This document shows positions 42,525-62,085 of a stretch of 64,000 bases of DNA, piece after piece. The notes beneath the pieces were generated by a model. The model did no database searches, was not told the DNA's origin, and saw only the letters and a program-made list of their open reading frames with translations. Both the position numbers and the translations under genes were made by a program. Numbering within the stretch: the stretch's first letter is position 1; each line of letters starts with the position of its first letter. The stretch comes from an uncultured Anaerolineaceae bacterium. Its GTDB lineage: Bacteria > Chloroflexota > Limnocylindria > Limnocylindrales > CSP1-4. The stretch lies in the NCBI GenBank assembly GCA_964513505.1, contig CAZENL010000002.1:4261-68260 (forward strand). Direction: 5' to 3'.

Positions 42525-42669
42525 CCGTTCCACGAAGTCCGGTTGACAATGGAGCAGGACCGTTGCCGTCACGCTCCGGTCAGCTTTCCGCTGCTAAACT
42601 CGGCCATCGACCACGGGGCCGCGCGCGGGCTCGCGTGGGACCCCTTCACTACGCGAGGCGCCGCAACGC

Positions 42670-44435: not shown

Positions 44436-44595
44436 TGCCGGGGATGCGCTCTCCGCGCCAGGATGTTGACCCGCTGGCTCGGTCGCCCCACTCGTGACCG
44501 TTCACAACGCTAGCCGGGGGACAGCCACGCCCGTACACTCTCCCGACGCCAGCGAAGCCCTGTCGCTCGGCCCGACCGTTGGAGGGATCCATCTC

Positions 44596-45255: not shown

Positions 45256-45424
45256 GTAAGCGCGCGTGCAGTCCGGGGCGACCGCCGGTAAAGGGCTCAT
45301 GTCTAATCTGGCAGAGCTTTCGGATCCGGACGGCGGGGGAATCGGCGGGCTTCGTCGTTCGGGTCCGGAAGCACTGACCTGACTTTGTTGGCCGCCACAG
45401 CCCGCGAAACAGGAGCGGCGGCGC

Positions 45425-46138: not shown

Positions 46139-46158
46139 CGGTCACGCGACCGCCGCCG

Positions 46159-47151: not shown

Positions 47152-47498
47152 CAGTGCAGGAGCTGTTGCCAATTCCGCGGCACGCGACCGGCCGGTCCCG
47201 GCACGGGCTGGTCGAGCGGATGGTCGCGCGGAGGCGCCAGCGGAGGTCCCTCCAATTCCTCATCGGTGCTGAAGTCCCAGAACCAGTCCTCGCCCGGCTC
47301 ATAGCTCTGGGCGATCGGATGCTGCGCCGCGATGGCGTGCTTGCGCGTGTGCTGCGACGGCGACGAATCGCAGCAGCCGACGTGGCCGCAATGGGCGCAG
47401 CGCCGCAGGTGGAACCACCAGCCGTCCGTGGCCAGGCATTCCACGCAGCCGGAGCCGCTGGGTGGTATCTCGGGATGGATGTCCGACCGGTCCGCCAC
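47151..47498 (-). CDS. UBP-type zinc-finger (ZnF-UBP) domain protein
   Basis: CVECLATDGWWFHLRRCAHCGHVGCCDSSPSQHTRKH carries the ZnF-UBP Cys/His ligand pattern. About 115 aa, no other domain. Confidence 0.7.
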   Translation of the reverse strand: MADRSDIHPEIPPSGSGCVECLATDGWWFHLRRCAHCGHVGCCDSSPSQHTRKHAIAAQHPIAQSYEPGEDWFWDFSTDEELEGPPLAPPRDHPLDQPVPGPAGRVPRNWQQLLH

Positions 47499-47727
47499 GG
47501 GTCACGCCCTCCGCTTCAAGGCCTCCGAGTATGCACCGGGATAGCGCCGCGGCGCTCCGGCGCCACGGTCGCTCACCGGCCGGCGCGGGAAGCCACGCAA
47601 CGCCCCCGGCTATACTCAACGGCCCGCCCTGCCACCCAGAAAACGGCCGGCGGCTCAGCGGTGCTGACCTCGTCAACGCCCACCGAACCGGCTTCCGGCC
47701 AACGCTTCCCAGAGGACCGCCCGCTTC

Positions 47728-48786
47728 ATGCTCGACGCCTTCCTTGGCCTGTTCTCCCGCGACATCGGGATCGACCTCGGGACTGCGAACACGCTCGTAC
47801 ACGTCCGCGGCCGCGGCATCGTGATCAGCGAGCCGAGCGTGGTGGCCATCGACGCCAAGACCAAGAAGGTGCTGGAGGTCGGCGCGGAGGCCAAGCGCAT
47901 GATCGGCCGCACGCCGGGCAGCATCATCGCCGTCCGGCCGCTGCGCGACGGGGTCATCAGCGACTTCGACGTGACCGAGCAGATGATCAAGTACTTCGTG
48001 CAGCGCGTGCACGACCGGGTCGGCCTGATCCCGCGTCCGCGCATGCTGCTCGGGATCCCGTCCGGCGTCACCGAGGTGGAGAAGCGCGCCGTCCGCGACG
48101 CGGCCCTGAACGCCGGAGCCCGCTGGGCGCGCCTCATCGAGGAGCCCATGGCGGCCGCGATCGGCGCCGGCCTGCCGGTCGGTGAAGCCACCGGCAGCCT
48201 GATCGTGGACATCGGCGGCGGCACCACGGAAGTGGCCGTCATCAGCCTCGGCGGCATCGTGGTCAGCCGCAGCATCCGCATCGGCGGGGACGAGCTGGAC
48301 CAGGACATCATTTCCTACGCCAGGCGCGAGTACAACCTGCTGGTCGGTGAGCGCACCTCGGAAGACATCAAGATCGCCATCGGTTCCGCGTATCCCGGCC
48401 CGCACGATGAGCAGCACGTGACCCTCCGCGGCCGTGACCTGCTCACCGGCCTGCCGCGTTCCGTGGAGATCTCCGCCGATCAGATCCGGGAGGCGCTGGA
48501 GCTGTCGGTGCAGCAGATCGTTGACACGATCAAGGACACCATCGAGGAGACGCCGCCGGAACTGGTGGCGGACATCATGGACCAGGGCATCGTGCTCGCC
48601 GGCGGCGGTGCGTTGCTCCAGGGGCTGGACCGGCGGATCATGGAAGCCACCCAGATGCCGGTGCACATCGCGGACGATCCCCTCACCTGCGTTGCGCGTG
48701 GTACCGGGCGGGTGCTCGAGGACCTGGAGAATCCGATCATGCAGCGCGCACTGGTGGCGGAGACCTACTCCCGGCCGCCCCGCTAG
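47728..48786 (+). CDS. mreB: Rod-shape-determining protein MreB
   Basis: Actin-fold phosphate 1/2 and adenosine motifs (IGIDLGTANT, IVDIGGGTTEVAVIS) with full-length homology. Confidence 0.92.
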   Translation: MLDAFLGLFSRDIGIDLGTANTLVHVRGRGIVISEPSVVAIDAKTKKVLEVGAEAKRMIGRTPGSIIAVRPLRDGVISDFDVTEQMIKYFVQRVHDRVGLIPRPRMLLGIPSGVTEVEKRAVRDAALNAGARWARLIEEPMAAAIGAGLPVGEATGSLIVDIGGGTTEVAVISLGGIVVSRSIRIGGDELDQDIISYARREYNLLVGERTSEDIKIAIGSAYPGPHDEQHVTLRGRDLLTGLPRSVEISADQIREALELSVQQIVDTIKDTIEETPPELVADIMDQGIVLAGGGALLQGLDRRIMEATQMPVHIADDPLTCVARGTGRVLEDLENPIMQRALVAETYSRPPR

Positions 48787-48798
48787 GTCGGCGAGGGC

Positions 48799-49689
48799 GT
48801 GCTCCAGAACCGGGCGACGCGCCAGTCGCGCGCGACTCGCCGCTGGGTCATCACCTATTCGCTGCTGGTCGCCATCAGCCTCGTCCTGATCGCCGTGTCC
48901 AGCGCCGCGCCCATCCAGGAACTGCGCCGCGGCGTCATCTTCGCCATGTCGCCGATCCAGGGAGCCCTGTCCGGCGCGACCCGGTCGGCCACCTCCATCT
49001 TCGACGCCATCGGGCAGATCGACCAGCTGCGCAAGGAGAACCGCTCGCTCACCGATCAGGTCTCCGCGCTGGAGACGCAGATGCAGCAGCTGGAAACCCT
49101 CCGCACGGAGAACGATCGCCTGTCGGCGCTCCTCGGCATCAAGGCGACGCTCCACTACAACACGGTGGTCGGCGACGTCATCGGCCGCCAGACCACCGAC
49201 CAGGAACGGGTGATCACCCTGGACCGCGGCACGGACGACGGCGTGCTGATCGACGACCCGGTTCTGTCCGAAGGCGGAGCGCTGGTCGGAGTCGTGTCAG
49301 ATGCGGGCCGCAACTATGCGTCGGTGCTGCTGATCTCCGACCCGCGCTCCCTGGTCATCGGTCAGGACGTGCAGACCCGATCAACCGGTGAGCTCGTTGG
49401 CCACCTCTCGGGACTGCTGGCGCTGTCCAATATCCCGACCACCCAGCAGATCGCCAAGGACGACACCATCGTCACTGCCGGCGAGGATCTCGGGGGATCC
49501 AACCCGGCTGCGTTTCCGCACGGCCTGCTGATCGGGAGCGTCGTCGAGGTGGACAGCGACGCCAGCGCGGTGGTGCAGACGGCCCTGATCGTCCCCACGG
49601 CGAACCTCGATGACCTGGAACACGTCCTGGTGATCACGGACTTCACGCCCCCTCCGACCTCGTCGCCGAGCCCCTCGCCAAAGGGCTGA
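48799..49689 (+). CDS. mreC: Rod-shape-determining protein MreC
   Basis: N-terminal TM helix, coiled coil (LRKENRSLTDQVSALETQMQQLETLRTEN) and an MreC beta-domain. Directly downstream of mreB. Confidence 0.8.
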   Translation: MLQNRATRQSRATRRWVITYSLLVAISLVLIAVSSAAPIQELRRGVIFAMSPIQGALSGATRSATSIFDAIGQIDQLRKENRSLTDQVSALETQMQQLETLRTENDRLSALLGIKATLHYNTVVGDVIGRQTTDQERVITLDRGTDDGVLIDDPVLSEGGALVGVVSDAGRNYASVLLISDPRSLVIGQDVQTRSTGELVGHLSGLLALSNIPTTQQIAKDDTIVTAGEDLGGSNPAAFPHGLLIGSVVEVDSDASAVVQTALIVPTANLDDLEHVLVITDFTPPPTSSPSPSPKG

Positions 49690-49961
49690 CGCCGCCCGTT
49701 CCAATCGCTGCGCCGGACACGCCGAGGGCCGGCTTGCGTCGCAAATCCGGGCCGGCAAGGCCAGACCCCACCGGGCCGATCGTCCACCGCGTACCCGTAC
49801 CGCGGTTCCGCCTGGCATCCGGGCGGACGCCTCGCCACCACCCCTCTCCCTACCTAACTGCCCGTTTCTGGCAGATCGGTGGTGCGCGGCGCCCAACCCG
49901 GCCCACGCCTCTTGCAGCGGGGCCCCGGCGGACCTTCACCGCATGGTTTCGGGCCCTCCGT

Positions 49962-49979
49962 GACGTCAACGTTGACCTC
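49962..49979. promoter_or_regulatory. Near-perfect 18-bp palindrome GACGTCAACGTTGACCTC (core GTCAACGTTGAC is perfect), about 56 nt upstream of the secreted caspase-like gene
   Basis: Only one mismatch pair. It sits in a 345-bp non-coding gap after mreC. Confidence 0.35.
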
Positions 49980-50034
49980 GTTACCAGGTGCGTTGAAACC
50001 GGCGTGCCCCGCAACCGACCGGAGAGAACCCTTC

Positions 50035-51957
50035 ATGTCCCTCGCACCTGTTCGAGCAACCCCACGGATCATCACTCGCCGCCTGGGCTTCTTCGCCGCC
50101 GTGACGGCCGCGGTCTTCATGTTCAGCTTCACGAGCCTCGCCGCGACGGCGCAGGCGTCGTCCAGCACCACCGCCACGAACACCGCTGCGATGGTGTCCG
50201 ACGCGCATGCTGCCACCACCCACCCCGTGGGCACGGCCGCCTCCAAGAAAGCCGTCATCGTCGTCGGGCCCGTGGGCAGCCAGACTGCCGAGTACATCCA
50301 GGGCGCCACGGACATCGCCAACATCCTCAGCGCTGCCGGCATGCAGGTCGTCCTCATCCTGCCGCCGCACGCCACCTGGTCTGCCGTCGTCTCGGCTGCC
50401 AACGGCGCCGACTTCTTCGCCTACCTAGGCCACGGCAACGGCTGGCCCGCCCCCTACGGCACGTTCCGCGAAGACAGCAAGGACGGGTTGGGCCTGGACC
50501 CGACCGACGGGGATACCAACACCAACGACGTCACCTACTACGGCGCGAGCCTCATGAAGGCCTCCATCGTGCTAGCCCCCAACGCCATCGTGCTGCTGAA
50601 CCGCCTGTGCTATGCGGACGGCAACGGTGAGGGTGGCTCGGCCATCCCGACCCAGGATGTCGCCTTCCAGCGCGCAGACAACTTCGCCTCGGGCTTCCTC
50701 GCGATGGGCGCCAAGGTGGTCTTCGCACTCGGCTGGCAGCCGGGCTCGGACCTCGCCAACGCCCTCGTGAACACCCACGAGACCATGGACAACTTCTTCG
50801 AGTGGAAAGACGGCGAGGGCACGGAGCCCCAGTACCAGCCTTGGCACGGGTGGATCGGCTGGCAGCCCAACCTGTACCTGGGCTCGGTGCGCACCCCCGG
50901 TGCCGTCGTTCACCTGGACCCGCACCCGACGGCGGGCTACCTCCGAGCCGTCACCGGCGACCTCAGCTTCACCACCGACCAGTGGTGGGGAGGGACCGAT
51001 AGCGGCGACACCACGCCCCCCGCGGTCACCAGCCTGACCACCGGCTCCGTCACCAACACCAGCCCCGCATACGGGGACAGCACCCCGGTCTTCACGCCCA
51101 ACGGCGACGGCATCAGCGACACCCTGACGATCAAGCACACGCTCTCCGAGGCGTCCTACCTGGACATCTCCGTCGCCCGCCCGGGTGGCACGGTCGTGCG
51201 TGACTTCACGAGCTATTCGGAACAGGGCGCCACGTCCGATGTCTGGAATGGCAGGAACGATTCCGCGAGCATCGTCCCTGACGGCACCTACACCGTCACC
51301 GTGACGCCCAGGGATCGCGCCGGCAATGTCGGCCCCGCGGTCTCCATCAACGTCGATGTGCTCACGGCGATGCGTTCGCCCAAGGCAAGCCCCAGCCAGT
51401 TCTATGCAGCCGACGGCGACACGCTGGCTCAGGCCCAGACGCAGAAGGTCACTTTGGATGAGCCCGCCAACCTGACGTGGGTCATCAAGGACGCCACCGG
51501 TGCCGTGGTCCGCCACGTGATGACCAACGAGTACCACCCGGTGGGCCTGGTTTCCTGGGCCTGGGACGGCCGCAACGATGCCGCTGCCTACGTGCCGGAT
51601 GGCGTGTACACCATCAGCATCACCGCCGGCACGGCCCAGGGCACCTACAGCCACGAAGTCCGTGTCACCGTGGCCCCCTTCAAGGTCACCACGAGCGCAT
51701 CGAGCGCCTCCGCCGGCCAGACGATCAAGCTGACCATCATTGCCGCGGAGGCCCAGAAGGGCTGGCCGAAGGTGACCGTCACGCAGCCCGGACTCGCCAA
51801 GTACTCGCTCCGCCTGGTCAAGTCCTCCACCACCAAGTTCGCGGCAACCTTCAAGCTGAGGGCGGGCGGACTGCCCGGCGTCGTGACCTTCCGGATCTCC
51901 GGCACGGACGCCAAAGGCGGCGTCGACACCCGGTTCTTCACCATCACCATGCTGTAA
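50035..51957 (+). CDS. Secreted protein: N-terminal caspase/gingipain-like (clan CD-like) domain plus two C-terminal FlgD-Ig-like domains
   Basis: Signal peptide (MSLAPV...TSLAATAQA), with a GGAGAG Shine-Dalgarno 8 nt upstream. Candidate His/Cys dyad: FAYLGHGNGW...~58 aa...LLNRLCYADG, after beta-strand AVIVVG. Two FlgD-Ig-like repeats (TPNGDGISDT...VRDFTS...VWNGRNDSASIVPDGTYTVTV...AGN). Confidence 0.6.
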   Translation: MSLAPVRATPRIITRRLGFFAAVTAAVFMFSFTSLAATAQASSSTTATNTAAMVSDAHAATTHPVGTAASKKAVIVVGPVGSQTAEYIQGATDIANILSAAGMQVVLILPPHATWSAVVSAANGADFFAYLGHGNGWPAPYGTFREDSKDGLGLDPTDGDTNTNDVTYYGASLMKASIVLAPNAIVLLNRLCYADGNGEGGSAIPTQDVAFQRADNFASGFLAMGAKVVFALGWQPGSDLANALVNTHETMDNFFEWKDGEGTEPQYQPWHGWIGWQPNLYLGSVRTPGAVVHLDPHPTAGYLRAVTGDLSFTTDQWWGGTDSGDTTPPAVTSLTTGSVTNTSPAYGDSTPVFTPNGDGISDTLTIKHTLSEASYLDISVARPGGTVVRDFTSYSEQGATSDVWNGRNDSASIVPDGTYTVTVTPRDRAGNVGPAVSINVDVLTAMRSPKASPSQFYAADGDTLAQAQTQKVTLDEPANLTWVIKDATGAVVRHVMTNEYHPVGLVSWAWDGRNDAAAYVPDGVYTISITAGTAQGTYSHEVRVTVAPFKVTTSASSASAGQTIKLTIIAAEAQKGWPKVTVTQPGLAKYSLRLVKSSTTKFAATFKLRAGGLPGVVTFRISGTDAKGGVDTRFFTITML

Positions 51958-52092
51958 ACCCAATGCTGCCGGCGCCTCCAACCACGAAGCGGGGGGAGGG
52001 CGCGCCGGGCGCATCGATGGCCCGATCCGCTGCGGACCGGGCCATCGCCCTATGGCGGGGCGGCCGGAGCGGCGCCGCCCGATAGACTGGCG

Positions 52093-52908
52093 GTGATGAC
52101 CGATCCGCAGCCCGACGATCAGGCCGCCTACGCGGACACGTGGATCGTCGTACCCACCTACAACGAGGCGGACAACGTCTCGGCGATTGCGGCTGCGATC
52201 CTGGAACGTCTTCCCGGCTCGACCGTGCTGGTCGTGGATGACGCCTCCCCGGACGGAACGGGCCGCATCGCCGACGAGCTGGCCGCCGCGAACCCGTCCG
52301 TCCGTGTCCAGCACCGGCCGAAGAAGCTCGGCCTCGGACGTGCCTATATCGACGGATTCCACGTGGCGCTGGCCGGTGGCGCGCGGCGGGTGGTCCAGAT
52401 GGACGCCGACTGGTCGCACGATCCTGTGTACCTGCCCGCGCTCGTCGGCGCGGTGCGCGAGCGAGAGGACGGCCCGGGCTTCGACCTGGTGATCGGTTCG
52501 CGCTACGTGACCGGTGGCGGCGTGAAGGATTGGGGCTTCTTTCGCCGCTTCGTCTCCCGCGGCGGCTCCATGTTCGCCCGGATCGTGCTGGGCCTCCAGC
52601 CGCGCGACCTGACCGGCGGCTTCAAGGCCTGGCGCCGCGAAGCCCTGGAGGTGGTTCCGTGGGAGCGCGTGCACTCCGGCGGCTATGTCTTCCAGATCGA
52701 GGCCACCTACCTCGCCACGCGGGCCGGCGCGAGCGTGACGGAGGTGCCCATCGTCTTCTCGGACCGCCGCGTCGGCGTGAGCAAGATGTCGCGCCGGATC
52801 ATCGCCGAAGCGCTCATCGTGGTCCTGCGCTTGCGCTGGGAGGAGCTGCGCGGTCGCGGACCCGCACGCCACGACCGGCTGCCCGCCGCGCCAGGGTCCG
52901 GAGGCTGA
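52093..52908 (+). CDS. Polyprenol-phosphate mannosyltransferase-like GT2 glycosyltransferase (Ppm1/DPM1 type)
   Basis: GT-A motifs (VVPTYNEADN, VVDDASPDGT, DADWSHDP). No membrane domain. Confidence 0.85.
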   Translation: MMTDPQPDDQAAYADTWIVVPTYNEADNVSAIAAAILERLPGSTVLVVDDASPDGTGRIADELAAANPSVRVQHRPKKLGLGRAYIDGFHVALAGGARRVVQMDADWSHDPVYLPALVGAVREREDGPGFDLVIGSRYVTGGGVKDWGFFRRFVSRGGSMFARIVLGLQPRDLTGGFKAWRREALEVVPWERVHSGGYVFQIEATYLATRAGASVTEVPIVFSDRRVGVSKMSRRIIAEALIVVLRLRWEELRGRGPARHDRLPAAPGSGG

Positions 52909-54251
52909 TGGCCAAACTTGCGGACCTGCGCGTTCCGGAGCAGCGACCCCGAGGGACGCGCGTGGTCCTGGATGCGCGGCCGCTCCAGGAGCCGACCCGG
53001 GCACCGATCACTGCGAGCTACCTGGACGGGCTGCTGACCGCCTATGCCGAACGGCCGTTGCCCGGCGAGAGCTTCCTGCTGCTGCTGCGCCTCATGCGTG
53101 AGGACCCGACGGAAGCGCTGCAGGAGCGCGGCCTGGCCGTGGCTGGGCGACGCAAGCTGCCGCCCACCAGCCGCACGTTCCGGTCCGCCGGCCTCACCAT
53201 CGACTCGTTCCTGTTGCGCGGCGCCTCCGTGCGCGGCGGTGGTCCGCGTCCGCCCGACGAACCAGCCACCGACGACGCCGCGGCCGTTGCCTCCACGGCG
53301 GCCGAGGCCACCGCGGCAGGGGCGGTGTTCCACACGGCCGGCGGTGCCGTCCCACTCCGTTCGCGGCTCCCGGTCGTGGCCACGCTCCTGGATCTTGCCC
53401 CGTGGGAACTGCCCGAGCGATACGCGGACAGCGTCGCGGCACGTTTCGGACATCGTCTTCGGGCGCGGAGCCTCCGGGACGCGAGCCGGGTGATCACGGC
53501 CTCCCGTGCCACGGCCGCGTCGGCCGTGACGCTGCTGCATCTTCGGCCCGAGCAGATCGAGGTCGTGCCGCTGGCCGCGGGTCCCGCCTTCCACCCGGGT
53601 GCTGCGGAGCCCGGCCTGGTGGCCAATCTGCGGTCTCGCTTCGACCTGCCGGAGCGCTATCTGGTCTTCTCCGGCCGCTACGACGCACGCAAGGACCTGG
53701 CCACGCTCTTCGCCGCCCTGGCGGCCCTGCGGGAGCAGGCACCTCCACGGGGAGCGGCCCGCAGCGCCACCGCTTCCGTCGCCTGGCCGCCGGTCGTGGT
53801 GCTGGCCGGCGCGGGTGGCACGGACGTGGACGACACGCTGGCCGTGGCTCGGGCGGCACGCCACGCAAGCGTCGCGGAGCTGGTGCGGCTCACGCCGCGC
53901 CTGGAGACGGCCGAGCTGGCCGCGCTGGAGGCCGCCTCGATCGGGCACATCCAGCCGGCGCTGTCCGATGGCACGGGACTCGCCGTCCTGGAGGCGCTGG
54001 CGATCGGCGTGCCGGTCATCGCGTCCCGGGTTGGCGCGCTCCCCGAGATCGTCGGCACGGCCGGAATCGTGGTGGAGCCGAAGAACCCGGCTCGCCTTGC
54101 GACGGCGATCCGCGCGCTCTGGGAGGACGGCGCGGTGGCGCGCCAGGTGACCAAGGCCGCCGCCGCTCGCGCGAAGGGACCGCGCCGAACGTGGGCTGAT
54201 GTGGCCGAGGACACCCGTCGGGTCTATGAGAAGGCGGCCACCGAAGGCTGA
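52908..54251 (+). CDS. GT4-family (GT-B) glycosyltransferase
   Basis: Its start overlaps the upstream stop (TGATG). The C-terminal GT4 donor-binding region is GLAVLEALAIGVPVIASRVGALPEIV. The first 126 codons of the ORF-track entry are in the overlap frame of the GT2 gene and were discarded. Confidence 0.75.
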   Translation: MAKLADLRVPEQRPRGTRVVLDARPLQEPTRAPITASYLDGLLTAYAERPLPGESFLLLLRLMREDPTEALQERGLAVAGRRKLPPTSRTFRSAGLTIDSFLLRGASVRGGGPRPPDEPATDDAAAVASTAAEATAAGAVFHTAGGAVPLRSRLPVVATLLDLAPWELPERYADSVAARFGHRLRARSLRDASRVITASRATAASAVTLLHLRPEQIEVVPLAAGPAFHPGAAEPGLVANLRSRFDLPERYLVFSGRYDARKDLATLFAALAALREQAPPRGAARSATASVAWPPVVVLAGAGGTDVDDTLAVARAARHASVAELVRLTPRLETAELAALEAASIGHIQPALSDGTGLAVLEALAIGVPVIASRVGALPEIVGTAGIVVEPKNPARLATAIRALWEDGAVARQVTKAAAARAKGPRRTWADVAEDTRRVYEKAATEG

Positions 54252-54351
54252 CCGGTCGCCGACGGGCCTCGCCACGGGTGTGCCGAATGGTCCTGCTAGG
54301 CTAGCCGTCACGCTCCCGAGAGGCGCCAGCCCAGCGCGCCGACGAACGAGG

Positions 54352-55194
54352 ATGACATCCGTGGCCACGCAGGACGGACGAGCGGAAGACGATCACAAGC
54401 TCGAGAGCGCGGAGGAGCTGGCCGCGGTCGAGGCGGCGGTGGAATCCCAGAACACCGGGCAGGAAGACCTCAGCTGGGCCACCATGCCGGCGGACTCGGA
54501 TGCTCCCTGGACGCCGCCGGCCGCCGAGGCGCCCGCCACGCCCGAGGCGGCCGCCGCGCCGGAGAAACCCGCCGCGCCCGACGCGCCTGACGAATCGCCA
54601 TCGGCCGCCGCAGGGTCTTCCTCAGAGGAAGCGGCAGCGGGCGACGAGGCCGCAACCGCCGAGTTGGCCGGGAAGCCAAAGAAGGCCGCCGCTCGCCGCA
54701 AGCGCGACGCAGCGCCGGAGGCCACGGCAGAAGTCCCCGCGGTTCCGGCTCAGAAAGATGCCCATCCAGACGCCGCCGCGGCAGTCGAGCCCGATGCCCG
54801 ACCTGCCGGATCGGCGGCGCGGGCGAAGCACGTCGCCATCTCCATGGGTGGAGCCGAGTCCGTCAAGGCCGAGCACGTGAGCATCAGCCAGGGCGGCGCC
54901 CAATCCGTCACGGCCGACGAGGTGCGCATCTCACAGGGCGGAGCCAGCTACGTCCACGGTCAGACCGTCCACATCGAGATGGGTGGGGCGGGAATGATCC
55001 AGGCCGACCGCGTCAGCCTGGAAGGATCCGGTGCGTTCGCCATCAACGCGCGGCGCGTGGACGCCACCAACAGCACCGCGTTCATCGTGATCACGCGGAA
55101 CGCCTCCGGCTTGAGGGTCCTCTTTGACTGGCGTGGCGCGGCGCTCACGTTCCTGTCGCTGCTGCTCCTGCGGCGCATCCTGCGGCGGCGGTAG
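54352..55194 (+). CDS. Tail-anchored repeat protein: acidic Ala/Pro/Glu-rich N-terminus, ~15-residue beta-solenoid-like repeats, C-terminal hydrophobic anchor
   Basis: Repeats are AISMGGAESVKAEH / VSISQGGAQSVTADE / VRISQGGASYVHGQT / VHIEMGGAGMIQADR / VSLEGSGAFAINARR. C-terminal LTFLSLLLLRRILRRR. Start chosen at MTSVATQDG. Confidence 0.5.
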   Translation: MTSVATQDGRAEDDHKLESAEELAAVEAAVESQNTGQEDLSWATMPADSDAPWTPPAAEAPATPEAAAAPEKPAAPDAPDESPSAAAGSSSEEAAAGDEAATAELAGKPKKAAARRKRDAAPEATAEVPAVPAQKDAHPDAAAAVEPDARPAGSAARAKHVAISMGGAESVKAEHVSISQGGAQSVTADEVRISQGGASYVHGQTVHIEMGGAGMIQADRVSLEGSGAFAINARRVDATNSTAFIVITRNASGLRVLFDWRGAALTFLSLLLLRRILRRR

Positions 55195-55203
55195 CCCGCC
55201 CGC

Positions 55204-56568
55204 GTGACCACTGACGTCGCGGAGACCAAGACCGAGTCCGGCGCCCCTCAACGCGGACTCCGCGTCACGATCGTCGCGGCCAATCCCTTCGAGTTCGACT
55301 CGCGCTTCTTGCGCACGGCCACGAGCCTCGCCGCGGACGGCCACACGCTCCGCATCCTCGGCTGGCCGGGCCCGAATCTGCCGGAGAAGGAAACCCTCGC
55401 GCCCGGCGTGGAACTCCAGCGGCTGGACATCGACCGTCGCATCTCCACGGGGCTTCGGCCGCTGCCATGGCCGATCCGGGCCGCCATCTCCCGAGCCATC
55501 GGCCTGGATCCCAGTGCCATCGTGCTTCCCCCGGACGCTCCCGTGGGGCTGGATCGTCTGCGGCATCCGGTGCGCCGGACGCTTGAGCTGGTCGCCAACG
55601 TGCGGCGCGCGGGTCCGTGGACCACGGCCGTGCTGGAGGCCGCCCCGGAAACGGAGGTGTTTCACGCCCAGTCGCTGATCGTGCTGCCGGTCGTCCGTGC
55701 GGCGGCAAAGAAGGTGGGCGGCCGTTTCGTCTACGACGTTGCCGACTACCACACGGAGGCAGCACGCCTGGCGCGCATGCCCGGTCCGATCCGCGAGCTG
55801 TTCCGTCGCCGGGAGCGCAGCTGGGCGCGAGACGCATCCGGCTTCCTCGCCGTGAGCGAGCCGGTGGCCACGCTCGTGGAGCGCCGCTGGGGCGTGCCCA
55901 AGCCGGCCGTCCTGTTCAACTGCCCGCCGGCCTGGCGGCCGGATGAGCCGGGCCCGATCGCCAGCAGCCGGATCCTCGATGCGCTCGGCCTCGCCGCTGA
56001 GCGTCCGGTGGTGCTGTACCAGGGTGGCTTCAGCGTCGATCGCGGCATCGAGGAGCTGGCGGCCGCGGCCCGCGACGAAGCGCTCCGGGACCTGGACGCG
56101 GCCGTGGTGTTCATGGGCTACGGCCGGTTGGAAGCTTACGTCGAGGGGCAGGTTCGGCAGCAGCCGGGCCGCGTGTACCGGTTGCCTGCCGTGCCGCCGG
56201 ACGAGTTGCTGGAGTGGACCGCCAGCGCCGATGTGTCGTTCGTCGGACAGCCGCCACGGACCCTGAACCAGAAGATGAATCTGCCGAACAAGCTGTTCGA
56301 GAGCATCATGGCCGGCGTCCCCGTGGTGGTTAGCAAGGGCAATGAGCAGTGCCGGCTGGTGACTGCGGAGGCAGTCGGGACGTGTTGCGACGTGGATTCT
56401 CCGACGGCAGTGGCGGAGGCCATCGCAAAGATCCTCTCCGCCCCTGACTTCGAGCGACAGCGGCTGAGGGCGCATTGCAGATCGGTTGCCCTCGCGAAGT
56501 ACACCTGGGATCTCAACGCCGGCGGCCTGCTGGCGCTCTACCGAGGGCTTGCGGAGCGTCCCGCGTGA
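55204..56568 (+). CDS. GT4-family glycosyltransferase (paralogue 1)
   Basis: GTG start. GT-B fold with an E-x7-E-like C-terminal region (KLFESIMAGVPVVVSKGNEQ). Confidence 0.8.
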   Translation: MTTDVAETKTESGAPQRGLRVTIVAANPFEFDSRFLRTATSLAADGHTLRILGWPGPNLPEKETLAPGVELQRLDIDRRISTGLRPLPWPIRAAISRAIGLDPSAIVLPPDAPVGLDRLRHPVRRTLELVANVRRAGPWTTAVLEAAPETEVFHAQSLIVLPVVRAAAKKVGGRFVYDVADYHTEAARLARMPGPIRELFRRRERSWARDASGFLAVSEPVATLVERRWGVPKPAVLFNCPPAWRPDEPGPIASSRILDALGLAAERPVVLYQGGFSVDRGIEELAAAARDEALRDLDAAVVFMGYGRLEAYVEGQVRQQPGRVYRLPAVPPDELLEWTASADVSFVGQPPRTLNQKMNLPNKLFESIMAGVPVVVSKGNEQCRLVTAEAVGTCCDVDSPTAVAEAIAKILSAPDFERQRLRAHCRSVALAKYTWDLNAGGLLALYRGLAERPA

Positions 56569-57848
56569 GTGGTGAACAGCGGCGCCCGAAATCCGTTGCG
56601 TTGCTGCTGAACAATCCGTTCCTGACGGACTCGCGGGCCTGGAAGATGGCGCGCACGCTGTCCGACGCGGGCTATGACGTGACCGTCGTGGCGCGAGCCC
56701 AGGAAGGGCTTCCGGCCACGGCGCAGGACCAGGGCTTCCGCGTCGTCCGCGTGGCCCAACCGGATCCGATGAAATGGCTGCCCAAGCCCAGGCTGCCGGA
56801 CGGCGAACATCTGCCGGATGCGCGACCGCTCAGCCGCGCCGCACGGATGCGCCGGCTGATCGCTGCCTCTGCGGGCCGCGGCGCCCAGGCGGCACGCTAC
56901 CTGCGCCTCACGCGCATCTGGGCGCGCGACATTGCCCGAGCGGTCGGGTTCGTGGACGTGTGGCAGGCAGAAGGACTGGTGGCCCTCCCGGTCGCGATCG
57001 AGCTGCGGCGGCGTGCCGGTGGGCTGGCGGTCTACGACTCGCGCGACCTGGACGTACAGAGCGCCCGGTTCGCTCGCCTGCCGGGTCCGTGGCGCGGCTT
57101 GCTGGAGCGGCGCGAGCGCAGCTGGGCGCGGTCCGTCGACGCGCTGATCTCCGTCAGCCGCCCGTACGCGGACGTGCTGGAGAAGAGCTTCGAGCGGACG
57201 GCCACCATCGTGATGAACGGGCCCCCGGACTACACGCCGCCCGATCCGCCGGTCCGCCTCTGGCACCAGAAGCTGGGACTGGATCCGGGCACGCGGGTCG
57301 TGCTCTACCTGGGCCTGTTCATGGCCGGCCGCGGCATCGATGAGTTGATGGCTGCCATCGGGCTGGTGCCGGAGAGCGCGCTCGTCATGGCGGGCTTCGG
57401 CACGGAGGAGCGGCGCTATCGAGAGGCTGCCACGAAGCTTCCCCACGCGGAAAGGATCTACTTCGTCGGCGGCGTGGCACCGCAGGACATCCTGCCGAGC
57501 ATCGCTGCCGCGGACATCTCGGCCATGCCGGTCCAGGGCGACACGCTCAACCACCGGCTGAACACGCCGACCAAGCTGTTCGACGCGATGGGCGCCGGCG
57601 TGCCGGTGGTGGCCAGCGACCTGCCGGGAATGGCTCCGATCGTGCGGGAGACCGGTTGCGGCGAACTCTGCGACCCGAACGATTCGGCCGACATCGCGCG
57701 GGCCATCCTGTTGATCCTGGACGCCACGCCGGAACGCCGCGCGGCCTATCGCCAGGCGTGCCTGGCAGCCGCGCACGGCCCCTATTCCTGGGAGCGCCAG
57801 GCAGTTGCGCTGCTCGGCCTCTACGAGGGCCTTCGCCTCTCCGCCTGA
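56565..57848 (+). CDS. GT4-family glycosyltransferase (paralogue 2)
   Basis: GTGA start/stop overlap with paralogue 1. Same architecture, with about 35-40% identity to it by eye (KLFDAMGAGVPVVASDLPGM). Confidence 0.8.
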   Translation: MSGEQRRPKSVALLLNNPFLTDSRAWKMARTLSDAGYDVTVVARAQEGLPATAQDQGFRVVRVAQPDPMKWLPKPRLPDGEHLPDARPLSRAARMRRLIAASAGRGAQAARYLRLTRIWARDIARAVGFVDVWQAEGLVALPVAIELRRRAGGLAVYDSRDLDVQSARFARLPGPWRGLLERRERSWARSVDALISVSRPYADVLEKSFERTATIVMNGPPDYTPPDPPVRLWHQKLGLDPGTRVVLYLGLFMAGRGIDELMAAIGLVPESALVMAGFGTEERRYREAATKLPHAERIYFVGGVAPQDILPSIAAADISAMPVQGDTLNHRLNTPTKLFDAMGAGVPVVASDLPGMAPIVRETGCGELCDPNDSADIARAILLILDATPERRAAYRQACLAAAHGPYSWERQAVALLGLYEGLRLSA

Positions 57849-57851
57849 CCC

Positions 57852-58859
57852 TCAGCGGCGGAGGATCTCCTCGGTCACGGCGTCCGCGATCGCCTCGAAC
57901 TTCGGCGGCTGCGGCGTGTGCTTCTCCAGCACCAGTTGCTCCGGGCGCTCCAGGATGCGCATCTGGCCGCGCTCAACGAGGGCCTTGTCGACCGCACCCA
58001 TCTCGCCGGCGAACGTGGTCCAGGTCGGTGTTCCGAGAAGCGCGGCTTCCCGGTTCATGGTGCCGCCGGCCGAGACCACCAGGTCCGCGAGATAGACCAG
58101 CGATGGACCATCGACCGGCTTCTCCGGCACCGTGACCCCTTTGGCCCCCGCGAACTCCTTGCCCTGGTCAACGGTCCGCGGCAGCAGCACGATCTGCGCC
58201 CCCGATGCACCGAGGTGCGTCAGGACGTCGCCGAAGAGCTCGTTGGCGATGCCGCGGTGGTAGAGGCTCATGGTGGCCGGAGGTCGCAGAACGGCCACCG
58301 GCCGTGTCTCGTCCAGGCCGAGTGACCTCAGCACGCCCAGATCAGGCTCAAAGTCCGCCAGCGAGACCTGCTCCTTGATCCCCGCGTAGGGCCGGTAGCG
58401 GCGCCGGTCCAGGCCGAAACGCTCGAGCGCCGCGAACGGGATGACGTCCGGCACCATCACCTTGCTGGCCAGGCGGAAGTTAACGCGGTGCATGGTGGCG
58501 GCGCCCTCGTAATCGTGGAGCACCGTGCTGTGCAGACGACGGAACCTTGCCGCCACCGCAAGGTCGTTGGAGCCGTGGCTGACGGCCTGGCGCAGCTTGC
58601 GGCCCTGCGAGAAGCGGACCAAGGCGCCCGAGCGCCTGGCAAGGCCCACCATCTTCCCGCCGAGGCCCGCGCCGCCGTGCCGACCGATGACGGCGTGCGG
58701 GATCCCGTACAGCTCCAGCAGCCCGAGCGTCTGCGCGAAGTCGCGCGCGGTGACCACGGATTCGACGCCCGCGTCGTCGAGGCGGCGCAGGATCGGGCGG
58801 AAGAAGAGCACGTGCGGGGAGTTGGTCAGGTCGATCCACACGGCGCCGGAAGAGGCCAT
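57852..58859 (-). CDS. DUF354-family protein (GT-B-like, glycosyltransferase/epimerase-related)
   Basis: The N-terminus (VWIDLTNSPHVLFFRPILRRLDDAGVESVVTARDFAQ) matches the DUF354 family as I recall it. Start chosen at the internal ATG (MASSGAVWIDL); the upstream 103 codons are Arg/Pro-rich read-through. Confidence 0.65.
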   Translation of the reverse strand: MASSGAVWIDLTNSPHVLFFRPILRRLDDAGVESVVTARDFAQTLGLLELYGIPHAVIGRHGGAGLGGKMVGLARRSGALVRFSQGRKLRQAVSHGSNDLAVAARFRRLHSTVLHDYEGAATMHRVNFRLASKVMVPDVIPFAALERFGLDRRRYRPYAGIKEQVSLADFEPDLGVLRSLGLDETRPVAVLRPPATMSLYHRGIANELFGDVLTHLGASGAQIVLLPRTVDQGKEFAGAKGVTVPEKPVDGPSLVYLADLVVSAGGTMNREAALLGTPTWTTFAGEMGAVDKALVERGQMRILERPEQLVLEKHTPQPPKFEAIADAVTEEILRR

Positions 58860-58909
58860 ATCGCCACTATGCCGGAAGATGGGGCCTGCACGTTTCCGAG
58901 GAGTCACCA

Positions 58910-60676
58910 TTGCGCTTCCGCCGCCTGCTCCGTGAGGCCCATCGACCGACGCTTCGTGGCACCGCGCGCCACATTGCCCGGCGCATGGGTCCACGGCCGC
59001 GGAGCCTGGCCGCACGCGGGTTGATGCGCCTTCCGGCGGGCAGTCACGGCGGTCGACAGGCCGCCTGGCTGGCCGGGATCCGGGTCGCGGCACTCGCCAC
59101 GCTGGGCCACGAAGCGGACGCGCACCAGTTCGCGATCGAGCGTGGCGCCAATCCGGGTGCGCGGCCACGCCTGGCCATGGCCACCTGGCTGGCCGACCAC
59201 GGCGAGCCCCGAGACGCGCTCAACATCGTGGCCGAGCCGTTGCCGTCCGGGGAGCGCCAGCCGCTCCGCCGCAACTGGCAGTTGCTGCACGCTCGCACGG
59301 CGCGGACACTTGGCCGCTACGCGGAGGCACGCGCCGCACTGGACCAGGTCATCGACGAGGGTCCGGAGGACGCCGAGGCGATCGCCGAACAGCGCCGCCT
59401 GGACCAGATCGTCGAGCGGTATGCGGTGGTGCCGGCGATCACGCGGACCATGCCTCCGGGCATGAAGCGCAAGCCGGGACGCGTGCTCCACCTGGTGGAG
59501 GCGTCGCTGGGCGACAACCAGTCCGGCTACACCATCCGGACACACCAGGTTGCCACGGCGCAGCGCCTCGCGGGCCTGGAGCCGACCGTCCTGGTGGTCG
59601 GTTCCAAGCCGCCGGATGGCGTCCTCAGTCGCCGCATCGATGACGTCGACTATCGCTGGCTTCGGGGCGCCGTCGGCATGCGCCGATTCAGTCGGACGTC
59701 GTGGACGGAGCTCGCCAACCTGGTCGCCGACGTGGTGATCGAGCTCGAGCCGGCGGTGGTCCACGCAGCCACGCCGCCAACGGTCGGCAATCTCGGGCGG
59801 GCGGTGGCGCGCTGGTCGGGCCTGCCGCTGGTCTACGAGGTGCGCGGCTTCCGGGACGAGTTCTGGCGCATCAGCCACGACGAGGACGAGAACGTCGACC
59901 ACGCCAGGTTGTCGCGGCGTGCCGACTCGGAGTCCATGCGCGAGGCGGCGGCCGTGGTCACGCTCGGGCAGCAGATGAAGGCAGAGGTGGTGAGCCGCGG
60001 AGCAGCCGCCGCCAACGTGTCCATCGTGCCGAATGCCGTGGACACGGCGCTCTTCCGGCCCGGTCCGCGGAACCAGGCGCTGGCCGAGCAGTACGGCATC
60101 GGCCGTGACGAGGTGGTGGTCGGCTACATCTCCTCGTTCCAGCCGTACGAGGACTTCGCCACGCTCGTCGACGCCATCGCCATCCTTCGGGCGCGCGGAC
60201 GCCGCGTCCGGGGCCTGCTGGTCGGCGACGGCTCCACGCGGCCGGACATCCTGCGGCAGGTCGCGGAGCTGGATCTGGAGGGCGTGGTGGCCATGCCCGG
60301 CCGCATCCCGCACGCGGACGTGCCGCGCCACCATCGCCTGATCGATGTGTTCGTGGTCCCGCGCGTGGCCAGCCGGCTCTCGCAGCTGGTCACGCCGCTC
60401 AAGCCGCTCGAGGCGATGGCCAGCGGACGGGCCCTGGTCGTGAGCCGTCTCGACGCGCTCACCGAAACGATTACGGACGGCCAGACGGGCATGACCTTCG
60501 ACCCGGGCAGCGCCACGGACCTCGCGAGCGTTCTGGAGCGGCTGGTGCTGGACCCGGGAGAACGCCATCGGCTGGGTGACGCGGCGCGCAGTTGGGTGGA
60601 GCGGGAGCGGACGCTGGCCCGCAACGGGCAGCGCTACCGAGAGATCTACGCGCGCCTGGGAGTGCCCCTCGGCTGA
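58910..60676 (+). CDS. GT4-family glycosyltransferase with a ~180-aa N-terminal TPR-like helical extension
   Basis: The N-terminal helical repeats are followed by a GT-B core (VLHLVEASLGDNQSGYTIRTHQVATAQ...PLEAMASGRALVVSRL). Confidence 0.8.
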   Translation: MRFRRLLREAHRPTLRGTARHIARRMGPRPRSLAARGLMRLPAGSHGGRQAAWLAGIRVAALATLGHEADAHQFAIERGANPGARPRLAMATWLADHGEPRDALNIVAEPLPSGERQPLRRNWQLLHARTARTLGRYAEARAALDQVIDEGPEDAEAIAEQRRLDQIVERYAVVPAITRTMPPGMKRKPGRVLHLVEASLGDNQSGYTIRTHQVATAQRLAGLEPTVLVVGSKPPDGVLSRRIDDVDYRWLRGAVGMRRFSRTSWTELANLVADVVIELEPAVVHAATPPTVGNLGRAVARWSGLPLVYEVRGFRDEFWRISHDEDENVDHARLSRRADSESMREAAAVVTLGQQMKAEVVSRGAAAANVSIVPNAVDTALFRPGPRNQALAEQYGIGRDEVVVGYISSFQPYEDFATLVDAIAILRARGRRVRGLLVGDGSTRPDILRQVAELDLEGVVAMPGRIPHADVPRHHRLIDVFVVPRVASRLSQLVTPLKPLEAMASGRALVVSRLDALTETITDGQTGMTFDPGSATDLASVLERLVLDPGERHRLGDAARSWVERERTLARNGQRYREIYARLGVPLG

Positions 60677-60680
60677 GCGG

Positions 60681-61964
60681 CTAAAGCACGTCCACGTTGG
60701 CCGGCACGGGGCCGGCGGGGTCGCCGTTGAGGCTCTTTCGGACGGCGTTGCGCAGGTCCATGATCCGTCGCGCGTGGTCCACCACTGGCGCGTAGTTCAC
60801 CGCGCGATGGTCCGTGGCGATGACCACGCAATCCGCCGCCTTGATGCGCTCCACGGTGAGCGGCACGGACTTCAGGCCTTCCTTGCGCAGTTCCGGCACG
60901 TGCGGATCGTGGTACTCCACGTCCGCGCCCTCGGCGCGCAGCAGTTCCAGCAGCTTGAGCGCCGGGCTCTCGCGCATGTCGCTGACGTTGGGCTTGTAGG
61001 CCACGCCGAGCAGCAGGATCTTGGCACCGTTGGCTGCGCGGCCGTCATGGTTGAGGGCACGAACCACCCGCTGGACCGCGTAGTACGGCATGTTTGAGTT
61101 GACCCGCCCGGCCAGCTCCACGAACTCCGTGGTCAGGTCGTACGCCTTGGCGCGCCAGGTCAGGTAGAACGGGTCGATGGGGATGCAGTGGCCGCCGAGC
61201 CCCGGTCCGGGCCAGAACGGCATGAAGCCGAACGGCTTGGTGGAGGCGGCGCCGATCGACTCCCACAGGTCGATGCCCATGCGGTCGCAGAGCATGGCCA
61301 TCTCGTTGACCAGGGCAATGTTCACCGCGCGGAAGGTGTTCTCCAGGATCTTGGCCATCTCCGCGCTCTCCGGGGTGGAGACCACGTGGACCGTTTCGCA
61401 GATGCGCCCGTAGAGCTCCGCGGTACGCCGCGTGCACTCGGCCGTCAGGCCGCCGACCACCTTGGGCGTGTTGCGGACGCCGAAGTGCCCGTTGCCGGGA
61501 TCGACGCGTTCCGGGCTGAAGGCCAGGAAGATATCGTCGCCGACGACGCGGCCGTCCCGCTCCAGGATGGGCTTGACGACTTCACGCGTGGTGCCTGGGT
61601 AGGTCGTGGATTCCAGGACCACCAGGGCGTCGCGCCCGAGGTTCGCGGCAGCCATCTCGGCGCCGGCGATCACGTAGCTGAGATCCGGATTGCGGTGCTC
61701 ATCGAGCGGCGTTGGCAGGCAGATGAGGATCGCGTCGCACTCGCGCAGGCCCGACGGATCGGTCGAGGCGCGCAGGTGGCCGCTGGCCAGCAGCTTCACC
61801 AGCAACCCGGAATCGACATCTTCGATGTACGAGGTCCCTGCGTTGACCGCGTCCACCTTGGTGGCTGAAACGTCCACTCCGAGCACGTCCACCCCGACCT
61901 CGGCGAAGGCTGTCGCAAGGGGAAGGCCGACGTACCCGAGTCCGATGATGCCGACTCGTGTCAC
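60681..61964 (-). CDS. wecC: UDP-N-acetyl-D-mannosamine (or UDP-GlcNAc) 6-dehydrogenase, WecC/UgdH family
   Basis: NAD-binding motif (RVGIIGLGYVGLPLA), catalytic Cys (GGHCIPIDPFYL) and the UDP-binding C-domain. GTG start chosen next to the Rossmann motif; the upstream 41 codons were discarded. Confidence 0.9.
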   Translation of the reverse strand: MTRVGIIGLGYVGLPLATAFAEVGVDVLGVDVSATKVDAVNAGTSYIEDVDSGLLVKLLASGHLRASTDPSGLRECDAILICLPTPLDEHRNPDLSYVIAGAEMAAANLGRDALVVLESTTYPGTTREVVKPILERDGRVVGDDIFLAFSPERVDPGNGHFGVRNTPKVVGGLTAECTRRTAELYGRICETVHVVSTPESAEMAKILENTFRAVNIALVNEMAMLCDRMGIDLWESIGAASTKPFGFMPFWPGPGLGGHCIPIDPFYLTWRAKAYDLTTEFVELAGRVNSNMPYYAVQRVVRALNHDGRAANGAKILLLGVAYKPNVSDMRESPALKLLELLRAEGADVEYHDPHVPELRKEGLKSVPLTVERIKAADCVVIATDHRAVNYAPVVDHARRIMDLRNAVRKSLNGDPAGPVPANVDVL

Positions 61965-62085
61965 AGCCACCGACGATAGCACTGATGGCCCGCTTGGCCC
62001 TGGCGGCGGCGCGCGCTGGCGGGTTTGGCTGGCATACTCGGGGCTCCCCTCAAGGAGCCCTGCCTCAACAGATGCTGTGCCGCCC

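Follow-up and report, generated by a model that had tools for sequence, protein, structure and literature searches.

A predicted tail-anchored beta-solenoid protein encoded among MreBC-linked glycosyltransferase genes of Chloroflexota, and its possible role as a membrane tether

Polyprenol-phosphate sugar synthases that lack a transmembrane (TM) segment can be held by dedicated tethers: DPM3 serves DPM1, and mycobacterial Ppm2 or the D1 domain of Ppm1 serves the Ppm1 catalytic domain. Bactofilins are described (PMC12448750, PMC10945521) as membrane-associated, nucleotide-independent beta-helical polymers with disordered tails that organize cell-wall enzymes. In the tail-anchored proteins ElaB and YqjD, a Gly-rich TM helix precedes a positively charged patch that closes with di-arginine (PMC5525287), and tail-anchored proteins accept lower TM hydrophobicity than type II proteins do (PMC6794478). 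Here we describe gene X, located in a 64,000-nucleotide stretch (hereafter the window) of contig CAZENL010000002.1 from an uncultured Anaerolineaceae bacterium of the phylum Chloroflexota. X encodes a predicted tail-anchored beta-solenoid and lies within a block of glycosyltransferase genes that starts with mreB and mreC. We hold the structural and genomic parts of this account, namely anatomy, family, predicted fold, inferred topology, and synteny, with high confidence; the role of X as a membrane tether is put forward tentatively.

Anatomy and predicted fold of protein X

The open reading frame (ORF) of X comprises 280 codons, with the stop codon at 55192-55194, as read from the ORF list and the sequence. 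Gene calling done independently on the public version of this contig (ENA ERZ27245396, k141_1160178) gave the identical start and an identical product of 280 amino acids (aa). A GTG at 54361, for which a GAGGA is better spaced, is a possible alternative start and would shift the beginning by 3 residues. The window has a G+C content of ~70%, and third-position G+C backs the reading frame. A preliminary description, made from the sequence alone, had placed this ORF between two GT4 glycosyltransferase genes, and Pfam (Glycos_transf_1 / Glyco_trans_1_4) bore this out on both sides (Table 1). The same description had noted an acidic Ala/Pro/Glu-rich N terminus and a hydrophobic C-terminal helix with the basic tail RRILRRR, both of which are read directly from the sequence. 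The N-terminal region spans 157 aa (31% Ala, 11% Glu, 11% Pro, and 8% Asp) with a net charge of -18, and the last 18 residues, AALTFLSLLLLRRILRRR, consist of 11 to 12 uncharged residues followed by five Arg within the final seven positions.

Between these two ends, a strict 15-residue register begins at residue 158 and runs for six to seven units, where the preliminary description had counted at least five of about 15 residues. The repeats follow the consensus x-V-x-I-x-Q-G-G-A-x-x-V-x-A-x, and their in-register BLOSUM62 score was 311, compared with -144 +/- 29 in 5000 composition-preserving shuffles (z = 15.7). When periods of 10 to 21 were tried, 15 alone scored positive. We then considered the predicted structure obtained with AlphaFold2 (AF2) from a 130-sequence alignment. 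For residues 141-280, the mean predicted local distance difference test score (pLDDT) was 91.8 and the predicted TM-score (pTM) was 0.76, with the repeat region above 95; in the full-length prediction, the repeats reached pLDDT 95-98, whereas residues 1-157 remained at ~47-63 except for a helix at 16-34. The repeat region is thus predicted to be structured, as the preliminary description supposed. In the model, strands recur each 15 residues and are interrupted solely at the G-G corners, and a 20-residue helix (260-279) closes the chain.

Two parity flips occur in each repeat along its hydrophobic positions (A, then V-x-A, then V-x-I), and conserved residues line up in register from one repeat to the next. 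Together, these features of the modeled repeat region are the mark of a three-sided beta-solenoid and not of a hairpin meander. A Foldseek search of the PDB with the X domain returned beta-helix matches, all with E >= 0.5 and none significant. The lowest E-value (0.51) belonged to a putative adhesin, 4ygu, and the highest TM-scores belonged to bactofilin BacA, 2n3d (TM 0.47/0.62, probability 0.82, E = 0.54). Further beta-helix matches were tapirins, LpxD, ice-binding proteins, and the budworm antifreeze protein 1m8n, which has a 15-residue coil and ranked 48. The likeness to bactofilin-like or adhesin beta-helices that had been noted earlier therefore holds to the extent that the top fold matches, 2n3d and 4ygu, are beta-helices; none of these matches is significant, and no bactofilin sequence match accompanies them. 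An antiparallel beta-taco of the LptA type was also considered, prompted by weak LptD_N matches and long DSSP strands. LptD_N was the most frequent weak Pfam match, found in 13 of 130 family members with a best E of 0.014, below the gathering score, and X itself scored 12.8 bits against a cutoff of 20.4. We dropped this fold in view of the two parity flips per repeat, the in-register stacking, and Foldseek matches that were all beta-helices and included nothing resembling LptA.

An unnamed family with a C-terminal anchor

Searches of Pfam, NCBIfam, and PDB sequences with X alone, with 130 family members, or with a profile gave no meaningful match. The only PDB sequence match, dihydrolipoamide dehydrogenase (E = 0.0014), was set aside as a repeat-pattern artifact. 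A word-index homologue search found 1 relative with the X domain alone and 20, all "hypothetical," with a 130-sequence profile. An exhaustive HMMER search was needed to reveal the family: among 1.84 billion representative proteins, it found 365 at E <= 1e-3 and 67 at E <= 1e-10, each representative standing for a cluster at 50% identity. In the window, X is the single match of the family hidden Markov model (HMM; E = 8.5e-40). Members are mostly 140-270 aa long, with the HMMER match usually at the C-terminal end, and come from Chloroflexota, Acidimicrobiia, and Methylomirabilota. Their source names, wherever found, are "hypothetical protein," and the sole Pfam or NCBIfam match among the 130 aligned members is one protein with a ribosomal L25 domain. 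Our literature searches found no described family of this kind. An architecture that combines a tail anchor with a beta-solenoid of 15-residue Q-G-G-A coils is undescribed in Pfam (2025), NCBIfam (2026), and the papers searched.

The family repeat logo, x-V-x-[IVL]-x-Q-G-G-A-x-x-[VIA]-x-A-x, shows conservation confined to inward and corner positions, with outward positions variable and polar. The number of canonical repeats varies from 0 to 8, and this variation falls at the N-terminal end of the solenoid. Over the 130 members, only two columns are at least 90% conserved, G253 and D259, the latter lying in the D-W-R that precedes the terminal helix. Three apparent domain fusions, P0116 (963 aa), P0144, and P0150, were rejected: they comprise a repeat protein unrelated to the family and calls that probably arose from frameshift or read-through. 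A short family-like fragment, P0174 (83 aa, JGI), is labeled "preprotein translocase subunit Sec61beta" at source, probably a misannotation driven by its tail-anchor-like C terminus.

The tail-anchor reading of X given in the preliminary description fits the entire family. N-terminal regions are acidic in 91% of members, and the C-terminal uncharged run has a median length of 16 aa (>=15 aa in 71%) and is followed by a tail of ~7 aa with a mean of 3.5 Lys/Arg. An N-terminal hydrophobic segment occurs in 1 of 150 members, where it has the look of a miscalled start, and in X there is none; neither X nor 149 of 150 relatives carries a signal peptide or Tat motif. The motif before the terminal helix, D-W-R-[GA] across the family, matches no known sorting signature, and X has no LPXTG, PEP, or other known sorting motif and no NCBIfam sorting-domain match. 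Judged by these sequence features, the family appears to have a tail-anchored architecture. In X itself, the uncharged run is 12 aa long and broken by RR, and the best 19-residue Kyte-Doolittle window is 1.3, compared with the classical 1.6, over an AF2 helix of 20 residues. The hydrophobic core of its anchor is therefore short and stands at the weak end of the family range. Since N-terminal hydrophobic segments are missing from the family, the solenoid is expected on the cytoplasmic side, and both solenoid and acidic tail of X should be cytoplasmic whether the anchor spans the membrane or is peripheral.

Gene neighborhoods in the family and in the window

Loci were found by scanning GTDB species genomes with the degenerate DNA pattern QGGA-x11-QGGA-x12-GG, which needs two consecutive QGGA units, and the locus counts are a sample rather than a census. 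The scan returned at least 119 loci, and among the matches listed, 44 were true family members by the family HMM. The remaining loci, Gly-rich chance matches in Myxococcota, Streptomyces, and others, were rejected by the HMM. Loci come from Chloroflexota (Anaerolineae, Chloroflexia, "Candidatus Limnocylindrales," Ktedonobacter, and Caldilineales), Acidimicrobiia, and Methylomirabilota/Rokubacteria, and neighbor clustering together with a distance tree indicated that gene context tracks phylogeny.

Clade A, which holds the window, groups together in the neighbor-joining tree and shares the co-directional block [mreB-mreC]-FlgD_Ig protein-GT2-GT4-X. In all 17 clade A loci with sufficient upstream DNA, GT2 and/or GT4 stands upstream of X on the same strand, and MreB and/or MreC is found further upstream wherever the fetched DNA extends far enough (the window, L026, L029, and L100). 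This synteny with GT2 and GT4 spans several Chloroflexota classes. Downstream of X, three arrangements occur: GT4b-GT4c-DUF354, as in the window; a SurA/PrsA-like parvulin peptidyl-prolyl isomerase (PPIase), then MazG and RNase PH; or a hexapeptide acyltransferase with a DegT/GFO enzyme. The protein encoded by the PPIase gene (L059:1650-3680 (-); also L001, L003, L029, L039, L060, L100, and L127) is 630-680 aa long, combines a SurA-like N-terminal region with parvulin-type PPIase domains, and is a probable extracytoplasmic foldase.

In the sister clade B, X and bL25/Ctc, its immediate downstream neighbor, form a tight gene pair in at least 12 contexts whose other neighbors differ (Table 1). 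In L006, the pair is followed by mreB-mreC-mreD-PBP2-rodA. In a small Acidimicrobiia clade, X adjoins a MerR/TipAS regulator and an alpha-amylase, and among the Rokubacteria loci examined no neighbor pattern was recognized. One protein, P0026 (240 aa, from an ENA metagenome contig of 1946 nt), has a complete L25 domain (L25p and TL5_C) fused to a solenoid and tail anchor; this solenoid resembles the glycosyltransferase-linked clade (61% identical to L026), and P0026 could be a real fusion or an assembly chimera.

Two motifs stand out in the N-terminal region of X. A helix motif, LxSAExLAAVEAAxE, lies amid otherwise free-drifting acidic sequence, as judged from the AF2 helix and the alignment. 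The corresponding motif HMM gave good scores in the window, L005, and L074 but a weak one in L104, and P0008 (L128) also shows the motif. These five loci form the window's subclade and all have GT4b directly downstream of X; the motif HMM found the motif in no other clade and in no locus with a PPIase after X. In addition, Trp motifs related to that of X recur in N-terminal regions. They were counted in 18 of 77 proteins of clade A, 4 of 43 of clade B, and 0 of 27 from other clades, taking the form DAPxW in L026-like proteins and PEWPAADL in others of clade A. The Trp motif may have a binding role.

In the window, the block from mreB to GT4c showed no promoter-like site in a scan of 47400-58000, and the same interval held one terminator-like match, inside the FlgD_Ig gene, fewer than expected by chance. 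GT4b starts 10 nt past the stop of X; the two genes overlap by 4 nt in L005 and by 1 nt in L128. No TM-like segment was found in GT2 or the GT4s of the window block, nor in their orthologues at other clade A loci, and within the conserved core (FlgD_Ig protein, GT2, GT4a, and X) X is the only cytoplasmic protein with a membrane anchor. The enzymes flanking X are 68-77% identical to those of "Candidatus Limnocylindrales" metagenome-assembled genomes (L074 and L104) and of metagenome contig L005, which makes Chloroflexota, near Limnocylindria, the most likely source of the window. X, in contrast, is only 36% identical to the L074 Limnocylindrales orthologue and evolves much faster than its enzymatic neighbors.

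The block GT4 enzymes resemble teichuronic-acid and exopolysaccharide GT4s in NCBIfam, and GT2 shows a weak NCBIfam likeness, far below cutoff in every case, to the polyprenyl-phosphate sugar synthases PpgS, AglJ, and ArnC. The dehydrogenase at 60681-62210 passes the TIGR03026 NDP-sugar dehydrogenase model (437 bits, cutoff 190). It also resembles UDP-ManNAc dehydrogenase, although its score of 271 bits with that model falls short of the cutoff of 459. A WecG/TagA-type transferase adjoins at L128. We infer from these genes that the product may be an acidic, wall-associated glycopolymer assembled on a lipid carrier, and the mreB-mreC-FlgD_Ig-GT2-GT4-X block has the look of a cytoplasmic stage in the making of a cell-wall-associated glycopolymer.

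Several further observations concern the neighboring genes. The FlgD_Ig protein, orthologue cluster 3, is found in at least 10 loci; in the window it has two FlgD_Ig domains, a weak CHU_C match, and a first part of ~330 residues without a Pfam match. This unmatched region holds the motifs YLGHGNGW and LNRLCYADGNGEGG, which we take to recall the His/Cys dyad of clan CD (gingipain/caspase-like) peptidases. The mreB-mreC genes run straight into the FlgD_Ig and glycosyltransferase genes, unlike the mreD-PBP2-rodA order of the classical operon and of L006, and the annotated portion of the window (42.6-64 kb) showed no mreD, PBP2, or rodA gene. Upstream of mreB, 42598-47501 encodes a double-zinc-ribbon protein, an Rce1-like CAAX protease, RadC, DUF5996, and a zf-UBP zinc-finger protein, with no obvious connection to X. 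The GT4s at 58910-60676 and 61678-63840 have long N-terminal extensions, one with a tetratricopeptide repeat (TPR) match, and their top NCBIfam match is TIGR04063, a PEP-CTERM/XrtA-system glycosyltransferase (281 and 290 bits, cutoff 442). For the second GT4, the frame read from stop to stop overlaps the opposite-strand dehydrogenase gene at 61678-62210, so the true start of this GT4 probably lies later. Finally, a 514-codon antisense ORF, 54931-56475 (-), overlaps the end of X and GT4b; it failed the third-position G+C filter that kept the sense-strand genes and is most likely a spurious long ORF typical of high-G+C DNA.

Table 1. Features of gene X, its gene block in the window, and paired loci of clade B
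Feature	Sequence	Coordinates	Strand	Basis or remark
Gene X, tail-anchored beta-solenoid protein, 280 aa		54352-55194	+	ORF list, independent gene call, family HMM
Acidic Ala/Glu/Pro-rich N-terminal region, residues 1-157, predicted disordered		54352-54822	+	Composition, AF2
Conserved N-terminal helix motif, residues 16-34	KLESAEELAAVEAAVESQN	54397-54453	+	AF2 helix, alignment, motif HMM
Trp-containing acidic short motif, residues 48-56	DSDAPWTPP	54493-54519	+	Related Trp motifs in clade A
Six 15-residue repeats, residues 158-247, beta-solenoid coils		54823-55092	+	Period-15 statistics, AF2, family repeat logo
Repeat 1 of X	AKHVAISMGGAESVK			15-residue register
Repeat 2 of X	AEHVSISQGGAQSVT			15-residue register
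Repeat 3 of X	ADEVRISQGGASYVH			15-residue register
Repeat 4 of X	GQTVHIEMGGAGMIQ			15-residue register
Repeat 5 of X	ADRVSLEGSGAFAIN			15-residue register
Repeat 6 of X	ARRVDATNSTAFIVI			Degenerate
Repeat 7 of X	TRNASGLRVLFDWRG			Cap
Final degenerate coil or cap with G253, D259-W-R		55093-55137	+	Conservation across 130 family members
C-terminal hydrophobic helix and Arg-rich tail, probable tail anchor	GAALTFLSLLLLRRILRRR	55129-55191	+	AF2 helix, family statistics
mreB (47728-48786) and mreC (48799-49689), start of conserved block		47728-49689	+	Pfam MreB_Mbl E = 8e-145, MreC E = 2.5e-32
Secreted FlgD_Ig/CHU_C-domain protein		50035-51957	+	Pfam FlgD_ig E = 1e-19; N-terminal hydrophobic segment
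GT2 (52096-52908) and GT4a (52908-54251), directly upstream of X		52096-54251	+	Pfam
GT4b (55204-56568) and GT4c (56565-57848), directly downstream of X		55204-57848	+	Pfam
DUF354 (-), TPR-GT4 (+), nucleotide-sugar dehydrogenase (-), further GT4 (+)		57852-63840	Mixed	Pfam, NCBIfam
Clade B X-bL25 pairs		L006:7694-8897, L008:8001-9327, L130:6001-7158; also L048, L065, L082, L084, L106, L123, P0135 contig		

A possible tether and its relation to known systems

How might X contribute to such a pathway? Our preferred reading, held with somewhat less than even confidence, is that X is a membrane tether or scaffold for membrane-less glycosyltransferases beside the MreBC machinery. The C-terminal Gly/Ala/Leu-rich helix and Arg patch would insert posttranslationally into the cytoplasmic membrane, and some seven 15-residue coils, with V, I, A, V, and A pointing inward and Q-G-G at a corner, would form a rigid rod of ~3 nm beside it. 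Solenoid and anchor would then serve as a platform, from which the N-terminal motifs (the helix at 16-34 and the Trp motif) could capture partners, so that X would hold the GT2 and GT4 enzymes at the membrane-bound lipid carrier. Tethering is plausible because the GT2 and GT4 enzymes of the block have no membrane segment yet must act on that carrier. A rigid platform with an anchor and a flexible tail bearing short motifs is a typical scaffold design. The evolution of X also looks scaffold-like, since only the structural repeat positions are conserved while its identity falls so far below that of the flanking enzymes; the occurrence of the helix motif in five loci with GT4b downstream, and its absence where a PPIase follows X, fits the same picture. 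We keep the mechanism tentative because its contacts, and with them partner binding and the scaffold role, are only inferred and because the family core is clearly not glycosyltransferase-specific.

A number of points weigh against tethering. The choice of a solenoid over a hairpin meander depends on the type of Foldseek match, on hydrophobic parity that changes inside each repeat, and on how the conserved positions stack. For the short C-terminal helix of X, the Arg-rich end would need either to pass through the membrane or to snorkel, which strains the positive-inside rule, and the helix could instead be a peripheral anchor. Peripheral GT-B enzymes often bind membranes unaided. L026 has GT4b and GT4c downstream of X, yet its X lacks the helix motif. 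The wider family adjoins bL25 or unrelated genes, so its conserved core cannot be glycosyltransferase-specific. The linkage of homologues to glycosyltransferase loci on which the preliminary description depended is thus upheld for clade A but not across the wider family. Nor did its other suggestions fare equally well: a chain-length or export accessory role found no specific support, and a surface anchor for the product is unlikely, given one N-terminal hydrophobic segment in 150 members and a solenoid expected in the cytoplasm.

Three other explanations share part of this evidence. X could be a self-assembling, bactofilin-like cytoskeletal element, its solenoids polymerizing end to end or side by side on the membrane and positioning envelope synthesis with MreB/MreC, in which case X would be more than a passive enzyme tether. 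We consider this unlikely, although BacA 2n3d is the best TM-score match (probability 0.82, TMt 0.62), bactofilins are polymers of the kind introduced above, and X shares an operon with mreB and mreC. A repeat number that varies at the N-terminal end of the solenoid suggests an open end there, and small-xxx-small patterns in many family anchors (e.g., ALAFGAGVGL) could drive helix packing. Set against these points, the Foldseek E of 0.54 is not significant, and the 130 members have no sequence relationship to Pfam Bactofilin: the bactofilin profile gave no match for X (hmmscan E <= 0.1) or for 130 relatives (E <= 0.01), and it was absent from the 25 most-matched families at E <= 10. By sequence, X is not a bactofilin family member. 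Moreover, cap and anchor occupy one end of the solenoid, and it is hard to see how nonpolar head-to-head/tail-to-tail filaments like those of bactofilins could then form. The bactofilin membrane-binding peptide is N-terminal and the anchor of X is C-terminal; the N terminus of X is acidic, its only hydrophobic helix is the C-terminal one, and a peptide of the bactofilin kind is not present.

Alternatively, the family could be a generic ribosome-linked (bL25) tail-anchored tether with a logic like that of YqjD, ElaB, and YgaM, its place in glycosyltransferase clusters being secondary or incidental. The recurrent X-bL25/Ctc pair of clade B, in at least 12 independent contexts, and the fusion of a complete L25 domain to solenoid and anchor in P0026 point this way, as do YqjD, ElaB, and YgaM themselves, described as C-tail-anchored ribosome binders with a very similar anchor (PMC5525287; bioRxiv 10.1101/2024.08.16.608256). 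However, clade A never adjoins bL25, except in L065, which is ambiguously placed in the tree, and its GT2/GT4 synteny is strict across several Chloroflexota classes. The fusion is known from a single 1.9-kb contig that may be an assembly chimera, and a comparison of 130 members with Pfam detected no DUF883 similarity. We therefore regard this explanation as rather improbable. More improbable still, to the point of being very doubtful, is that X is an extracytoplasmic, surface-anchored beta-helix, adhesin-like or sorted by a sortase or exosortase, and displayed on or attached to the glycan product. The C terminus does have the three-part look of a sorting signal (DWR motif, hydrophobic helix, and Arg cluster), two nearby GT4s match PEP-CTERM/XrtA-system glycosyltransferases best, below cutoff, the lowest Foldseek E-value belongs to the putative adhesin 4ygu, and the positive-inside rule would place the Arg tail in the cytoplasm and the remainder outside. 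Yet X and 149 of 150 relatives have no signal peptide or Tat motif, X has no known sorting motif such as LPXTG or PEP, and the annotated portion of the block shows neither a sortase nor an exosortase gene. An anchor at the extreme C terminus also implies posttranslational insertion, and there is no known signal-less export route for a folded and highly acidic protein of 150-260 residues.

Chloroflexota and their relatives are abundant and poorly studied, and how they build their envelopes is little understood. A conserved operon linking MreB and MreC with a membrane-less glycosyltransferase set emerges from the present analysis, together with a protein family of 365 clusters that databases leave unnamed and whose predicted fold is confident. 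If X is indeed a tether, it would account for the retention at the membrane of the cytoplasmic steps in wall-polymer synthesis, perhaps coupled to MreB-guided growth, and would represent a second, independent beta-helical solution, besides bactofilins, for organizing envelope enzymes. The pairing of clade B with bL25 hints at a link between membrane and ribosome. It is conceivable, if doubtful, that the family as a whole is a new class of modular tail-anchored beta-solenoid tethers in monoderm-type lineages (Chloroflexota, Acidimicrobiia, and Methylomirabilota), in which the conserved solenoid, DWR cap, and anchor would supply the membrane platform and clade-specific acidic-tail motifs would choose the client: the MreBC-linked wall-glycopolymer glycosyltransferases in clade A and, via bL25, ribosomes in clade B.

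Among known systems, bactofilins (PF04519; BacA 2n3d and Thermus 6ria) are, as X is predicted to be, small cytoplasmic beta-helix proteins of about six or seven coils around a hydrophobic core, and both would combine disordered flanking tails and membrane association with genetic linkage to cell-shape or cell-wall machinery. X differs in its strict 15-residue Q-G-G-A repeat, with a fold match of only E = 0.54, and in its C-terminal hydrophobic tail, in place of which bactofilins have a short membrane-targeting peptide at the N terminus (PMC12448750). ElaB, YqjD, and YgaM (DUF883) resemble X at the other end of the chain, having no signal peptide and a C-terminal Gly/Ala-rich helix with a basic patch ending in Arg-Arg (PMC5525287). 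They bind ribosomes, a function that parallels the pairing of clade B with bL25; unlike X, however, their cytoplasmic part is helical rather than a beta-solenoid, and the X clade is linked to glycosyltransferases, not ribosomal genes. As in X, a Trp presumably stands just before the helix in the Escherichia coli DUF883 proteins. The DPM3/Ppm2 tethers offer an analogy only: a soluble GT2-type enzyme is encoded beside, depends on, and is held at the membrane by a small membrane protein, but these tethers are polytopic or helical, with no solenoid and no tail anchor, and the window GT2 resembles such synthases weakly.

DUF4097-type adhesins (4ygu), LptA/LptD_N, curli/Fap amyloids, and ice-binding beta-helices share repetitive short strands with X, and the spruce budworm antifreeze protein (1m8n) also shares its coil length. 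In contrast to X, these proteins are secreted or periplasmic, all matches to them are below significance, and LptA is an antiparallel jellyroll, unlike the in-register stacking and parity pattern of X. Taken by analogy, X would work most like a bactofilin-type beta-helical organizer combined with a tail-anchored tether.

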